64,000 nt of DNA from Sedimentisphaerales bacterium (GTDB taxonomy: Bacteria; Planctomycetota; Phycisphaerae; Sedimentisphaerales; Anaerobacaceae), in assembly GCA_963708075.1 (NCBI GenBank), contig OY970194.1, forward strand, positions 1,344,001-1,408,000. Direction: 5' to 3'. This document shows positions 41,531-48,877 of this stretch, one piece after another. The notes beneath the pieces are model-generated. The model was not told the DNA's origin. It searched no databases and worked only from the letters and a program-made list of their open reading frames with translations. Every line of letters starts with the position of its first letter. The stretch's first letter is position 1. A program made the translations under genes and the position numbers.

Positions 41531-41630
41531 CTATCATTGGCGATTGCCTGCAGATCGTGCTGTGAATAGGTCAGCTCGATCACACGTGCGTTCCAGGTCG
41601 CGAGAACACAATACAATGTGCGGCTAACCA

Positions 41631-41804
41631 CAGGCAGGTTTTCTGACTCGCGTCCTACGTCGAGGCCCTTCCCATTCGCACGCGCGAACAGTGGATAACA
41701 CCTCTCGGATTTCCGATAGCCATCGGAGCGAACGCTTACAGCGGCGCGACCGTCGCGGAATTTCACCGCGTTCCCATTTCAGTATCTCAAAGTCCCGAGA
41801 CCTG
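41631..41804 (-). ncRNA. Cobalamin (B12) riboswitch
   Basis: Minus strand AGGT...AAATGGGAACGCGGTGAAATTCCGCGACGGTCGCGCCGCTGTAA...CCACTG...TGGGAAGG...GAGTCAGAAAACCTGCCTG. Confidence 0.92.
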
Positions 41805-41966
41805 CAGTCAGGTTATGCACTTCCCAAAGAGCTGACGCGATGCTACGGGGCAGGTGCGGGACTGTCAATCAGAAAATGACTGATGACATCTTTTTTTTGC
41901 GTCGAGGGGGTAAACACGTGTGCGTCGGCGCATCGCAAGTGTCTGGCGTTGAGCATGTCGCTCGCC

Positions 41967-42949: not shown

Positions 42950-44335
42950 TCACTTCTTGATCAGATCCGTGCCGGCGTACGGGTCTTTCTTCACCAGAGA
43001 CTGGGCATTGGCGACGATATGCGGCGACGTTCTGCGCAGCTCGTCCAGCGTTCTCGTTGCCGCCGTGACCACGCGGGCGTTCTGCTCGGTCGCGATGATT
43101 TCCTCAAGCAGGGCGTAGGTCCTGGCGCTCGGGAAATTCCGTAGTGCGTAGATCGCCGCCGTTCTACCGCCGTCGGCGGAAACCTCCTTATTGCCCGCGG
43201 CGGCGTAGAGCAGGGCGTCCTGCGCCTGGGGCTCTTTGATCTGGCTGATCGTATTGACCAGGTAGCCGCTCTCGCCGGGGGGCGTGGCCTCGAGCTTACG
43301 CATCAGGTAGCTGATGGCCTGTGGATCGCCGGTCTTCCCAAGCGCCTCCACAGCCGCCCGCGCGAGCGCATCCTGCGGCGCCGAGGCGACGTCGCCTGCC
43401 AGCGATATGAGCGAATCTGTCGCCTTGGACGAGTGGATGTTGCCGATCAACTGGGCGATCCGCTCGGTGTCTCTCACATCCGTCGCCCCGTCGAACCTCG
43501 CGATCAACTCGTCAAGGATGGGCGTGTCGGCCATGCGGGCAAGGGCCTCGCCGGCCGCTCTCAGGACCGTTGAATCCGCCGTGGTCAGGACGTTGTCGAG
43601 CAGGATGGGCCAGCTCTCATGATTGTTGATGCCGGCGACTCGTTTGGCCAACTCCTCCTTGTACTGTCCCTCCTTGATTTGGGTCAGCGTATCGAGCAAT
43701 GTCGATGTGGCCAGCGGCGACCCTATTCTGGCGAGCGCCTCGGCCGCCCACATGCCCGCCTCACCCTGCTCGCGGGCGATCACCTGCGTCAGTGGTGCGA
43801 TCACCCGGTCGCCCAGCGCGACGAGCTCATCCAGACACTGCTTGATCCTGGCGTGATCTTTCTCCTGGATGGCCTCCTGCAGCATGAGGATGATCCGGCC
43901 GGTACTGTCCATCGCCTGCAGACCACCGCGGCGGCCGGTTCCGTCCTCAGTGACAGTCTCGCGTGTCTCCGCCTCCCGCCCCTGCGCCTCTTGAGCCAGT
44001 GGCGGACGTTCTGTCATCTGCGACAGCTCGCCTGCCCCCGAGTCGATTCTCCTTCGGGGCACCCGTCCCGTGCTGTCGTCAGTGACGGCCGTCAGGTCCG
44101 GCGATCTTGCGGCGGAGTCACGTGCTGCCAGTCCTGCAGACTCCGTATCCACGGGGCCGACCGGTCCTTGATGCTGAATCGAGCGGTTCACCACATACAG
44201 AACGACGAGCGTGGCCAGCAGCGCCGCGGGAAAGGCCAGAAGCGGCCACTCGAATTGCTTGCCACGGCCTTGCGGGCAGGCAGAGGCCGCAGGTGACGGT
44301 GTCGAACTCTTCTTGTTGCGATGAATGCTCTTCAT
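42950..44335 (-). CDS. Membrane-anchored HEAT-repeat protein
   Basis: N-terminal TM; 'AAEALARIG', 'AAGEALARMA', 'AAVEALGKTGDPQA'. Confidence 0.85.
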   Translation of the reverse strand: MKSIHRNKKSSTPSPAASACPQGRGKQFEWPLLAFPAALLATLVVLYVVNRSIQHQGPVGPVDTESAGLAARDSAARSPDLTAVTDDSTGRVPRRRIDSGAGELSQMTERPPLAQEAQGREAETRETVTEDGTGRRGGLQAMDSTGRIILMLQEAIQEKDHARIKQCLDELVALGDRVIAPLTQVIAREQGEAGMWAAEALARIGSPLATSTLLDTLTQIKEGQYKEELAKRVAGINNHESWPILLDNVLTTADSTVLRAAGEALARMADTPILDELIARFDGATDVRDTERIAQLIGNIHSSKATDSLISLAGDVASAPQDALARAAVEALGKTGDPQAISYLMRKLEATPPGESGYLVNTISQIKEPQAQDALLYAAAGNKEVSADGGRTAAIYALRNFPSARTYALLEEIIATEQNARVVTAATRTLDELRRTSPHIVANAQSLVKKDPYAGTDLIKK

Positions 44336-44762
44336 ATCGGTCTCACAGGTCTGGTCCCGGGTGACTTGCGGAGGAGGCAGGCCGCCCGGCTCGATTATTC
44401 GATTCTACACCATTAGACACACATACCGGCATTAAATTCCTCTTCCTATGTCGGATCGAGGGGGGCCGGAAATAAGCACGCGGAGCAGCTTGGCTCGCAT
44501 TATCCGTGTCCTCGCCGGAAATACAGCGGTCGGCTGAACTTATGTGCAGGAGCGCAGATCGCAAGCCCCCGCCCCGTGGTCCGAAAAGACATAAGGCCAC
44601 GAAGCAGTGATGATTAAGGGCGGGAATAGGCTCGATGGTCCTCAAACAACTCCTCGCAGAATCAAGACGGCCTAACAGCCGGAGAGCAAGGCCGCAGATT
44701 CAACACCCGCAGCATACTCTCAAATCCCATAATCCTACGCTGGTTGTTTGTTGGCAATGATC

Positions 44763-44791
44763 AGTATAGCACCGCCCCCGCCTCCCGTCAA
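44763..44791 (-). promoter_or_regulatory. sigma70-type promoter
   Basis: TTGACG-N17-TATACT. Confidence 0.6.
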
Positions 44792-44805
44792 GCCCGGATC
44801 GGACG

Positions 44806-45096
44806 ATTGGCTTTGTTTCGCAAACAGCGCGCGCTCGTAGGGGCGGGTTTCAAACCCGCCCGTGAACCCTCAAACTTGAGATTCCCATCTCAATTGGCTT
44901 TGTTTCGCACAAGGGGTCCTTCGCTCCCGACATAGAGGCCCCGCAAATTGGCTTTGTTTCGCACGATTCCTTCCCCATCGGCACAAGGGGCCACCCAGAA
45001 AGATTGGCTTTGTTTGGCGCGGCGGATTCTCTGGTGCTCCGTAGGGTGTGCATCGCACACCATCTGTCCGACAAGACAAATTGGGTTTGTTTTGCA
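44806..45096. repeat. Array of five 17-bp direct repeats ATTGGCTTTGTTTCGCA with unique spacers
   Basis: Copies at 44806, 44893, 44947 (identical), 45003 and 45080 (variants). Confidence 0.85.
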
Positions 45097-45250
45097 TAAT
45101 TGAGCACTCGCCGGCGGCGAGGAATGCCCCTTCGCGCTTGCCGGCGTCCCGCCGGTCGGGGACGATTCGTGCGTCCTGTCGCATGGCCGTATCCTCCAAC
45201 TTACCTACTTTGGCAGTCACGGTTCAGTTATTCTACCATCACACATATGC

Positions 45251-45267
45251 AGCAAATGCTGTGCCAA
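45251..45267 (-). promoter_or_regulatory. sigma54 (-24/-12) promoter pointing into the repeat array
   Basis: Minus strand TTGGCACAGCATTTGCT with GG-N10-GC spacing. Confidence 0.7.
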
Positions 45268-45495
45268 GTGAAACATGCAAATACGGCGTTTCTTCCTGGC
45301 TGTAGACAAAGGCAGGTAACCCCTCGTGGCAGAGATGGGTTTACCGATCGTGGTAGTCGGCTGCGTTTACCGCTTTCCGGGCTGCCAGCAGGATAGGCGA
45401 CATTTGCCTCAGATCCGCAAGGGCGGCACAGTTGTCCTCCGTAATCACGGTGCAGAATGAAGACACGGCTGCGGTTGCACTCCAGGGCTGATCGC

Positions 45496-46998
45496 TTACG
45501 ACCCCGAATGCGATCTTCTCCCATCCAGCAACTTGCACAGGAGAGCGGGGCATTCCGTCGCGCAGGGGTTGTGGATGCGCGCTACCCCCTGAAACGTCTC
45601 TCGATCATCTATAGTCACACCTTCGTCGCCTGTGCCTTTCGCGAATAGTGTCATAATGATCGGGCGTTTGCGGCCATCTCCCCTACGCAGCATCCGCCCA
45701 ATCCGCTGTATACGCTGCCGTGCTGCCTGTGTTGAGGCCGCAAGAATCGCACCGTCCACATCAGGAACGTCGATTCCTTCATCCAGGCAATGACAAACGA
45801 GCAATGCACCGGACTTCTGTTTCCTGAACTCTTGCAAGATTCTGTCACATTCTCCCCGATCCATTCCACTGTGATAGGTCCTGCACCACATTCCCGGAAT
45901 GTTGGCCAGTCTTCCCTGCAGACACCTTGCCGCATGCACGGGGATAGTATCATTCACCAGATCAGCGGCGGCAATTCGTTCGAAAAACACCAGTGCTTTC
46001 CTTCCACTCTCGATGAATTGCATGATCGTATTCTCAGCCAAATCCATCTTATTGGCCGCCATGTAGTATATCGCAGCTCGTTTGAACAGAAGCAGGAAGA
46101 GTCTTTCAATCTCCGGCTCATTACCCGAGCCGAGCCTGCCCATGAGTTGCTGCAGTTTCCTGAACAGCCTATGATCGGGAATATTGCGCAGTTCATCCCT
46201 GTAGCCCTGAGAGACCTTTCGAAATTGATCGCTGATCTTCTCGGATAGCTCAAAGTACTCGTCTGCCTCGCGCAGTCAGATCCACACCCACGTTCACAAG
46301 ATCAAAGGACGGGACAAGCCCGTCTCCATGGGCCTCCTGAAAAGTGTAGGTCTTGACGATTTGCCCCAGGCCATCGGTTCCATAGGGATCGATTGTAGCG
46401 GAGAGCCCCATTCGGTAGGTCCACTCGTGAGGTGGCTCGAGGATTTCCTTCCATTTCGGTGCATCAGTGTAGTGGTGGCATTCATCTGCGATCAGGAAGC
46501 TCCTATGCCGTCCGCTAGAACGTGGATCCCAGCAGTGCTCGAAGAGATCTCTTGCACGACTCAGGGCCGTCTGAATAGTCGCCACGTACGCCAGCGGTGG
46601 GACGGGGAAGGCATCCTCATATTTGCCGCCGATTCTCCCAATACGCTGGTCACGAAATCGCTCTTTGAGCTTCTCATACCATTGATCCATCAGCGCCAGA
46701 GTTGCGCAATGACCATTGTGTTGAGCCACGGGTCTTGACTGTATAGTTGCGCCAGAGCTTCGATTGCCACGTATGTCTTACCGGACCCTGTCACTGCTTC
46801 AATGATTCCTTTGCGGCCAGCTTGCTCCCAAAGTCTAATCGCTTCTGCCTGCCAGCTATAATAGTTGGGAGCACGACCCCCGTGGCGTGGATGACGTCTC
46901 AATCTCATGATGGTCTCCAATAAAGCCCCGCACTCATTTGATTTCCTCTCGCGTCGGATGTGAATATCCCATCGGCGAGTCGCCTTGCTTTTACGCAT
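45496..46998 (-). pseudogene. SF2 (ResIII/XPB-like) helicase in three frameshifted pieces
   Basis: 'AVTGSGKT' | 'ADECHH','LSAT' | 'LDEGIDVPD','QRIGRMLR'; shifts near 46707 and 46270; may be sequencing error. Confidence 0.7.
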
Positions 46999-47249
46999 AT
47001 CGTTCAGAACAGGCCATCGCTTCAGGAGAAATCACCTTGAACTGTCGGCATTCATTAGGGAGCCCCGTCTCGATGGCTCGCTACGGCTGTTTTGCCACGT
47101 GGATCGGTGGGCCCCTTGGAGGCTTCCTGCGGCGGGCCTGCCATGCTGACATGATGCGTCCGCAATGAGTTGCAAAAACGACACCGGGAGCGGGCGGGCG
47201 ATGCGTCTAAGTGCTTGTTATGTCGGCAGTTGCGGCTGTTGGCCTTGTC

Positions 47250-47265
47250 TGGCACGCGGTTTGCT
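47250..47265 (+). promoter_or_regulatory. sigma54 promoter of the Hsp20 pair
   Basis: TGGCACG-CGGT-TTGCT consensus. Confidence 0.8.
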
Positions 47266-47343
47266 TATCCTTATCTGACAAGAGAATATGGAATACCCGA
47301 TACCGTGATGAGATGTGACAGTTGAGAAAGGAGGTAATCGGCT

Positions 47344-48399: not shown

Positions 48400-48498
48400 A
48401 TCAATTTTCAGTGCCTGGAGTCTTCACAGATACTCCGGCGGGGGTGTGGTCGGAATTCGGCGGCGGCGTGTAGCCGCCGTGTGCGGACAGCGCCTCTT

Positions 48499-48702
48499 TC
48501 GTCCCTTACGGGACTGGCTTTTGCCCTCGGCCCCGGTTCCCCAGCGATCAATCGCTGGGCTATTCTCTATCGCCCTGCGGGCTTGGACTTTGCTTCAGTC
48601 CTCTTGCGTCGGCCCGTCCGCCCCACGGGGGCGATCGACACTAGCCCACCGTTTCAACGGTGGGTACGATAGTCAATCCTATCTCAAAGCCCCGCAGGGG
48701 CG
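48499..48702. repeat. Cluster of short REP-like palindromes (CGTCCC..GGGAC / CCCAGCGATCAATCGCTGGG type)
   Basis: gtccc-ttac-gggac, cccagcgat-ca-atcgctggg, cccaccgtt-tc-aacggtggg, gcccc-gca-ggggc. Confidence 0.65.
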
Positions 48703-48877
48703 AAAGAAGACTGGGCTGCGCTCTTGTGTCGGGTGGAATCCGAATCCGCCACCGTATGCCGACCGCACCCTCCGACGGTGCGGGGGGCCGTTTGATATGG
48801 ACGCTGCCTGGGCCGCCGGATACAATCAACTGCTCGTGCAGATGTTGGATTTTGGATGCCCTTGGAGGCTCGTGAAG

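Follow-up and report, generated by a model that had tools for sequence, protein, structure and literature searches.

The window analysed here is a stretch of 64,000 nucleotides from a 7.5-Mb genome with a GC content of 60% (G000); related loci were labelled Sedimentisphaerales or Phycisphaerae. On its minus strand lies an array of five copies of a short direct repeat, hereafter R, preceded by a leader with a σ54-type promoter and running, with no terminator found after it, into a host promoter (Table 1). The preliminary description of this locus proved accurate in its layout: three exact R copies and two with two mismatches follow one another at start-to-start distances of 77, 56, 54 and 87 nt, and the σ54 −24/−12 consensus, the GGAGG ribosome-binding site and the ATG at 45184 are all present as claimed. 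Among random 400-bp windows, 0.11% contain the strict σ54 pattern, and the genome as a whole has 28 matches to it. An 8-nt direct repeat pair upstream of the promoter exists as well, but the sequence given for it, GTTTACCG, is the plus-strand reading; the minus strand reads CGGTAAAC. The second CGGTAAAC copy (45346-45339, minus strand) is the left arm of an imperfect palindrome, whose right arm resembles the IHF consensus. From the ATG runs a 104-aa open reading frame (ORF) that ends at 44870, ahead of the fifth R copy, and has no Pfam match. As had been pointed out, R is read in different frames of this ORF (QNKPN, QTKPI, AKQSQ), and leaders homologous to that of the locus yield different or 20-aa ORFs.

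Table 1. Features of the R array locus and its surroundings (positions in the window)
Feature	Positions	Strand	Remarks
R copy 1	45080-45096	minus	2 mismatches to 17-mer
R copy 2	45003-45019	minus	2 mismatches to 17-mer
R copy 3	44947-44963	minus	exact 17-mer
R copy 4	44893-44909	minus	exact 17-mer
R copy 5	44806-44822	minus	exact 17-mer; outside 104-aa ORF; 14 nt before host −35 box
Spacer 1	45020-45079	minus	REP-type hairpin ending CTAC at 45061-45041; hairpin has 95 genomic copies
Spacer 2	44964-45002	minus	no match elsewhere in genome
Spacer 3	44910-44946	minus	no match elsewhere in genome
Spacer 4	44823-44892	minus	heptamer-repeat remnant and REP-type hairpin ending CTAC at 44861-44837; hairpin has 45 genomic copies
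First CGGTAAAC (reported earlier as GTTTACCG)	45365-45372	minus	not conserved in other σ54-type leaders
Imperfect palindrome upstream of promoter	45315-45345	minus	type seen before X genes and many arrays (leaders compared by eye)
σ54 consensus	45251-45267	minus	one of at least three promoter types preceding R arrays
GGAGG ribosome-binding site	45193-45197	minus	resembles gene X leaders
Decayed first 19 codons of gene X (MRQDARIVPDRRDAGKREG)	45128-45184	minus	collinear with X N-terminus
104-aa ORF	44870-45184	minus	X remnant fused to array read-through; not a conserved protein
Host σ70-type promoter (44791-44763, starting 14 nt past last R) and conserved host block	44731-44791	minus	outside the element
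Helicase gene in three pieces (ResIII/DEAD, Helicase_C)	45496-46998	minus	passenger upstream of leader, inside insert
Lineage-specific insert	44792-47120 (ends approximate)	minus	helicase remnant, leader and array, between host promoter and HSP20 regulatory region

The genome contains 296 copies of the 13-nt R core (at most one mismatch), grouped in 55 clusters, 42 of which are arrays of at least two copies with periods of 32-198 nt; none of the arrays mixes strands. Ten of the 42 constitute the 3' part of a gene that we designate X, while 32 stand alone. The gene downstream is co-oriented with the array in 31 of the 42 cases (crude gene calls), and a σ70-type promoter lies 12-62 nt after the last R in 8 of the 32 stand-alone arrays, as against 4.7% of intergenic controls. 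No replichore bias of the arrays was evident by eye. Among 18 congeners, eight carry the exact R 16-mer, in up to 266 copies, whereas none of 12 other genomes of the order does; a 15-mer variant was found in 8 of 150 other genomes of the phylum, at one or two copies each. This rarity outside the clade suggests that the large arrays are a clade-limited expansion. A second type of co-oriented mosaic, lacking R and consisting of ATCCGTG-type, GGAATGAC-type and heptamer modules, is located upstream of many arrays (e.g. C1:6489700-6490050) and elsewhere; its commonest module pair in G000 occurs 12 times on the same strand and never on opposite strands.

Control by σ54, whose association with the arrays the preliminary description had put forward as a test, is not a trait of the arrays, as the motif lies within 400 bp upstream in only 2 of the 55 clusters. 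Read against the consensus of each sigma class, the promoters of the 32 stand-alone arrays are ECF-like in nine cases, σ70-like in six and of the σ54 type in two, with no pattern matched in 15. The σ54 leader is a real class: the leader of the locus is 73% identical over 162 nt to that of a second array in the genome (G000:211948), three of four metagenome matches to the σ54-leader pattern (L097, L099 and L100) are followed by arrays with different spacers, and rpoN is present in the genome. The GTTTACCG pair, proposed to represent activator sites, is not kept in four other σ54-leader arrays. The untranslated part of the locus leader aligns with a σ70-class leader (65% over 135 nt), indicating that a common leader has come under different promoters by exchange. 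In two congeners, 20 arrays picked by R position have leaders of their own and no X within the stretch examined. Many arrays of G005 and G013 (L257-L264, L250-L256) are preceded by yet another leader class, characterised by a conserved promoter-like motif absent from G000.

Gene X is present in exactly nine copies in the genome, one of them split by an IS, and all nine are followed by an array. It has no credible Pfam, NCBIfam, PHROG or PDB match. A profile of X retrieved 33,369 representatives (50% clustering) at E ≤ 0.001, a figure that includes small terminases (TerS) and other proteins sharing the N-terminal motif only, and 450 at 1e-30. The gene was found in 16 of 18 congeners, being multicopy in 15 of the 18, and in 3 of 12 other genomes of the order. 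Its neighbours at the loci read are host or IS genes, and the unit shared between copies measures 1.2-1.7 kb with X as its sole gene. Traces of X persist in 18 of the 32 stand-alone arrays in all, the locus array included: 12 retain an X-type leader and eight carry decayed first X codons. On a matrix trained only on 52 X relatives, the ATG region of the locus scores −22.0, compared to −32.3 for the best of 600 control windows. This remnant of X codons at ATG 45184 indicates that the 104-aa ORF is the start of X read on into the array. Given these remains, the stand-alone arrays, that of the locus among them, very probably descend from X-coding copies. A stop-free frame is kept in 7 of 8 coding arrays versus 6 of 29 stand-alone arrays, and a conserved last peptide follows tails of varied length in 29 of 257 X proteins, whose total lengths are 256-437 aa.

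The pairing of X and R extends far beyond this genome. At 80 GTDB loci, from Planctomycetota, Acidobacteriota and Pseudomonadota, R follows X in 62 cases (48 of 56 in a mostly planctomycete group and 14 of 24 in Acidobacteriota, Pseudomonadota and others, several of the misses being contig ends), and no match to R was found in the 1.4 kb upstream of X. Judged by this co-occurrence, X and R are tied across phyla. In X relatives, 64 copies of R lie inside the X ORF, where they use all three frames (26/16/14), and 60 lie past the stop. The earlier proposal that R is maintained at the level of nucleic acid is borne out by these positions. A conserved repeat protein was rejected on account of the three frames used and the 60 of 124 copies after the stop.

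R is 90-100% invariant at 13 positions (283 copies) and is not a palindrome. Close to X, a frequent form consists of two R copies 86-92 bp apart (22 cases). In all 12 Bryobacterales copies an IHF-type site, called by its consensus, lies exactly +18 nt after R, and in 8 of the 22 planctomycete 86-92-bp units one lies at +34 nt; the planctomycete count is weak alone, at 11 of 22 versus 37.5% in shuffles, with a mismatch count not above shuffles. The genome contains three HU/IHF-family genes. An RNA hairpin formed by R was rejected, since none of 13 copies with a G-to-C change restores pairing. The recurrent spacing of R to the IHF-type site, its ORF-independent position and this lack of compensatory change favour a DNA site. 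Helical phasing of the repeats was likewise discarded: at 10.5 bp, p was 0.007 for 242 units but 0.26 once these were collapsed into 127 groups.

The spacers had been described as unique. This holds for spacers 2 and 3, which are unmatched in the genome, whereas spacer 1 has matches at 25 genomic places outside arrays and in one other array, and spacer 4 at 61 such places and in six other arrays. Spacer 1 belongs to a unit group of 21 units from 17 arrays; overall, 147 of 251 array units fall in 28 groups common within or between arrays. Spacer length ranges from 13 to about 260 nt. Dispersed repeats outside arrays are matched by 103 of 230 spacers versus 21 of 230 controls, and 108 spacers match nothing else. 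The recurring modules are GTAG/GTGG hairpins and heptamer runs, co-oriented within arrays (59 same-strand versus 2 opposite) and also upstream of the promoters (20/20). Between orthologous arrays (L097, L100), units have been gained or lost internally and blocks duplicated, and in two congeners 2 of 142 array units are shared with G000. Taken together, the sharing of units within lineages, the internal changes and the scarcity of cross-congener units suggest that arrays are built within lineages by unit recombination, not by phage capture. Captured phage DNA is in any case not what the spacers of the locus appear to be, its array having no phage match.

In the genome, 13 Y1/RAYT-family matches were detected, five of them flanked by GTAG/GTGG hairpins, some of spacer-module families; the two hairpins of the locus array have no copy within 700 bp of a RAYT-family gene. 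Together with the excess of dispersed-repeat matches, the internal rearrangements and the few units common to G000 and two congeners, these genes would fit a functionless mosaic of the NIME or BIME kind, in which R, a leftover of the end of X elements, acts as a hot spot of recombination, while RAYT transposases and RecA build and shuffle the mosaics. We consider such a mosaic improbable, as the invariance of R and its tie to X over three phyla imply a binding protein. Furthermore, the REPs are co-oriented here and do not alternate as they do in BIMEs (PMC2817692), and R is a direct repeat rather than a palindrome like dRS3 (PMC1797815).

The strict strand polarity of arrays and modules could also be taken as a sign that the array transcript itself is functional, in a generalised form of the array RNA proposed earlier, R being a single-stranded handle bound by X or a host protein, the REP and heptamer pieces antisense or sponge modules, and the different sigma factors a source of condition-specific paralogues. 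The retention of promoters and ribosome-binding sites by gene-less copies (a promoter pattern is matched in 17 of 32), the σ54 leader kept in three metagenome loci with different spacers, and a G content of 38.5% on the array strand agree with a role as RNA. Even so, a functional array RNA seems unlikely. The modules upstream of the promoter have the same polarity as those behind it, and the fixed-distance IHF-type site is a feature at the level of DNA. Rfam returned nothing at the locus at gathering score (one chance match, E 0.27), folding of the array is weak (z −1.57), and the possible R hairpin is devoid of compensatory changes. The periods are unlike those of guides, and the array reaches the host promoter with no terminator. 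Antisense action on REP-bearing mRNAs was set aside, as no bias in strand relative to the neighbouring genes was seen for modules outside arrays (crude gene caller).

A CRISPR-like or RNA-guided immunity array with acquired foreign spacers would be suggested by the repeat-spacer look and by a leader with an IHF-type site. This reading is already largely refuted, and we give it hardly any credence. In agreement with the absence of cas genes noted before, no cas1 was found in the whole genome (92.8% complete), and the array has no phage match. The spacers vary in length as described, are common to several arrays and carry host repeats, orthologous arrays change internally, and X has no Cas or Nop fold.

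The array is absent from all 11 congener HSP20 loci examined (23 congeners searched). From the conserved host block to HSP20, 10 of the 11 measure 288-334 bp, as compared to about 2550 bp here, and the eleventh is without the insert too. On the strength of this comparison, the element was inserted at this site. Recent X copies have sharp ends in unrelated flanks, at about −215 to −225 before the ATG and +140 to +149 after the last R, and in their subfamily a MITE terminus, present as 63 end copies, forms the 3' end. Neither an integrase nor a transposase is linked to the element, and a scan of 113 upstream ORFs likewise turned up no integrase. The earlier suggestion of a repeat-expanding mobile system is supported, in that the system appears mobile and matched none of the libraries searched. 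In G013, a 6-kb, 96%-identical segmental duplication (G013:C15 and G013:C7; L265, L266) includes an array and may be a strain mixture or assembly effect; the duplicated array was uninformative as to the ends of the element. A MITE of the type mentioned above lies in the window at 48442-48770, with imperfect terminal inverted repeats of about 29 bp, an internal size that varies in 70-bp steps (303/373/443) and a right end that also terminates one X subfamily. It contains a match to the Rfam motif Acido-Lenti-1 (48540-48583), suggesting that the motif is a MITE part here.

Upstream of some arrays, defence-type genes were found (MmeI, Eco57I, nSTAND3, DUF4238, DUF4760); most of the 113 upstream ORFs, obtained by a crude ORF choice and without a genome-wide control, have no Pfam match or are housekeeping. 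The genome's only reverse transcriptase match (L181:3260-4819; G000:C1 ~1191260-1192820) lies in an islet with a DUF4145 gene, and a single R follows about 500 bp later.

Clues to the nature of X came from viral sequences. Of 65 viral loci matching X, which had been collected using the X N-terminal motif itself, 48 have a long downstream ORF, and in 21 of these 48 it encodes a large terminase (TerL). TerS PHROGs are matched by 10 of 50 motif-bearing viral ORFs. Residues 3-45 of X align with genes preceding large terminases (HHalign 99.2%; 14 of 18 rows directly before a TerL match) and residues 11-65 with a second viral gene group (98.2%), while the remainder of X did not align. By these profile alignments, the N-terminus of X is homologous to phage TerS. 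In the viral contigs L040-L093, divergent large terminases are directly preceded by a TerS family that has a cluster of five cysteines; this family corresponds to phrog_26872, of unknown function, and to no named PHROG.

The structure of X is predicted to be all-helical (pLDDT 90). Searches of PDB and BFVD with this fold and with the X sequence gave no specific match (Foldseek E at best 0.48; highest Z 8.2, on long helices), a result that does not make the fold new. In the predicted assembly of four copies, X molecules pack laterally through two faces; the score is 0.83 versus 0.02 for the best control, albeit in a four-copy job unlike the calibration, where 20 of 30 solved homo-pairs and 1 of 23 single chains attained the mark for self-association. 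Runs agreed in no less than 49% of their contacts, pLDDT did not fall below 73 and residues 1-40 remained outside the contacts. The models thus predict that X self-associates side by side via helical hairpins and leaves residues 1-40 free, as in TerS rings. According to PMC9611059 and PMC11331095, the TerS plan comprises an N-terminal DNA-binding segment, a helical-hairpin ring and a flexible TerL-binding tail; tails that bind TerL are described for P22 and lambda (PMC9611059). The modelled layout of X would fit this plan. Four TerL profiles found no match in the genome (92.8% complete), implying that any partner of X must be external.

Our preferred reading, held with slightly less than even confidence and by analogy with phage packaging, is that the locus is a non-autonomous, gene-less copy of an integrase-free element made up of a small terminase and its own site, which depends on or interferes with phage packaging. 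A complete element would consist, in this order, of a palindromic IHF-type site, a promoter, a leader, gene X and an array of the 13-17-bp R. This architecture, the descent of stand-alone arrays from X copies and the exchange of promoters are, as far as comparison of sequences goes, established. X would bind R in double-stranded DNA, with IHF bending assisting, in the way that TerS binds pac or cos in or beside its own gene. Upon infection by a helper phage, X might recruit the phage large terminase to the array, so that DNA at the array, that is the element and neighbouring passenger genes, could be packaged and transferred. Gene-less copies such as the locus would use X in trans. Arrays would grow and reshuffle by recombination between R units, with host REP and heptamer repeats riding along. 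The σ54 promoter would be an exchanged promoter ahead of a decayed X start, and any transcript from it is probably a by-product. The packaging step would have its analogues in SaPI TerS and lateral transduction (PMC12829572) and in Rpp (PMC6739421).

Several observations count against packaging. Homology to TerS covers only 43-55 of the 181 X residues, the helical core lacks a specific structural match, and the conserved last peptide is limited to one subfamily. Nor is R characteristic of real terS loci: a one-mismatch copy lies upstream in 4 of 21 cases, two of them in the same phage, and 30 viral 16-mer matches to R are single copies in unrelated contexts. At the 80 GTDB loci, 13 R-like matches lie on the antisense strand downstream of X. 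The promoters kept in gene-less copies fit an RNA role equally, and packaging alone leaves sharp-ended insertion at new sites unexplained.

The TerS-like N-terminus and predicted self-association of X would also suit a defensive protein, namely one that mimics TerS in a dominant-negative manner and either poisons phage TerS rings or titrates TerL, with the arrays serving as decoys that the host retains under different stress promoters. The failure of four profiles to detect TerL in the genome, the three promoter types in front of arrays, the defence-type genes upstream of some of them and the lone reverse transcriptase before a single R are compatible with defence, and Rpp of E. coli PICIs blocks phage packaging by TerS binding (PMC6739421). 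We nevertheless regard defence as rather unlikely: it creates no need for as many as 42 arrays built of reshuffled REP-bearing units, the upstream ORFs tested mostly lack a Pfam match or are housekeeping, and the sharp ends of recent X copies point to selfish spread.

Comparison with known systems sets the terminase-and-site element apart from each of them. With phage TerS and its pac or cos site (HK97, P22, lambda gpNu1/cosB) X shares the N-terminal motif seen in TerS of uncultured phages, and an IHF site beside the repeats matches the layout of lambda cosB. Further likenesses (PMC11331095, PMC9611059) are the helical-hairpin core of about 20 kDa, predicted in X to oligomerise, with its flexible tail, and the short A-tract site in or beside the own gene, the HK97 site being 15 bp with an A-tract. 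Unlike a phage locus, the X element has no TerL, portal or capsid genes and occurs as nine chromosomal X copies and 32 gene-less arrays; the homology is confined to the N-terminal quarter of X, and the site has multiplied into arrays with REP-bearing spacers. PICIs and SaPIs (PMC12829572, PMC6739421) likewise have a TerS or TerS-like protein outside a phage; X, for its part, would divert a helper terminase to its own site or block it there. They differ from the X element, which has no integrase, primase/replicase or att sites, measures 1.2-1.7 kb, is present in many copies per genome, is inserted beside host promoters and has non-autonomous copies.

Neisserial intergenic mosaic elements (NIMEs; dRS3/RS arrays; PMC1797815) resemble R arrays in being intergenic, in combining a short constant repeat with spacers of 19-214 bp that form sequence families, and in the proposal that they grow by recombining with incoming DNA. 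Whereas dRS3 measures 20 bp with terminal inverted repeats, R is a direct repeat without a palindrome, and its arrays possess a promoter and a leader, descend from one specific gene and keep a strict polarity. With BIMEs and REPIN-RAYT systems (PMC2817692), R arrays share the GTAG/GTGG hairpins of the genome's RAYTs in their spacers and an IHF site between repeats, as in BIME-1. Here, the constant unit is R and not the REP, the REPs are co-oriented and of mixed families, and the arrays are tied to X and not to rayt. CRISPR arrays and CsrB/RsmZ sponge RNAs were compared by their characteristic features. The former share the repeat-spacer look and the latter the multiple short motifs downstream of a regulated promoter, but the locus array lacks cas1, foreign or fixed-length spacers, GGA hairpin loops, a terminator and an Rfam match. 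The element is not a phage terS locus, and it departs from PICIs, CRISPR arrays, BIMEs, NIMEs and CsrB-type RNAs in their defining features.

In the literature covered, which takes in few subscription papers, we found no description of R, of planctomycete repeat mosaics of this kind or, going by titles and opening abstract lines, of an orphan-terminase array element. X represents a very large unannotated family, which now has a likely origin from small terminases; R may be regarded as its candidate binding site, conserved in three phyla, and a non-autonomous form of the element has been recognised. The pairing of R and X makes a direct binding test possible. CRISPR-like arrays and 'repeat proteins' with KQSQ, ETKP or NKAN motifs in these genomes can be recognised as the X-R element. 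If packaging indeed occurs, the chromosomes of environmental bacteria hold many built-in packaging signals, and a route of gene transfer or phage interference beyond known satellites would exist. More tentatively than for the locus itself, we envisage a widespread class of minimal, integrase-free phage parasites that combine a single TerS-like gene with an IHF-bent packaging site of its own, and whose dozens of gene-less arrays could serve as launch and landing pads by which phages move neighbouring host and defence genes, with exchangeable stress promoters. If such minimal parasites exist, an unannotated family of more than 30,000 clusters would gain a function and a DNA site.

Further features of the window flank the insert. 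On the plus strand, a second σ54-type promoter (about 47249-47268) precedes the HSP20 pair; congeners retain it along with the palindrome upstream of it and an IHF-like stretch. At 44335-44730, the gene after the conserved host promoter encodes a HEAT-repeat protein in G000 and another ORF in congeners, which suggests that this side has been rearranged too. Further away, a cobalamin riboswitch is located at 41616-41820 on the minus strand.
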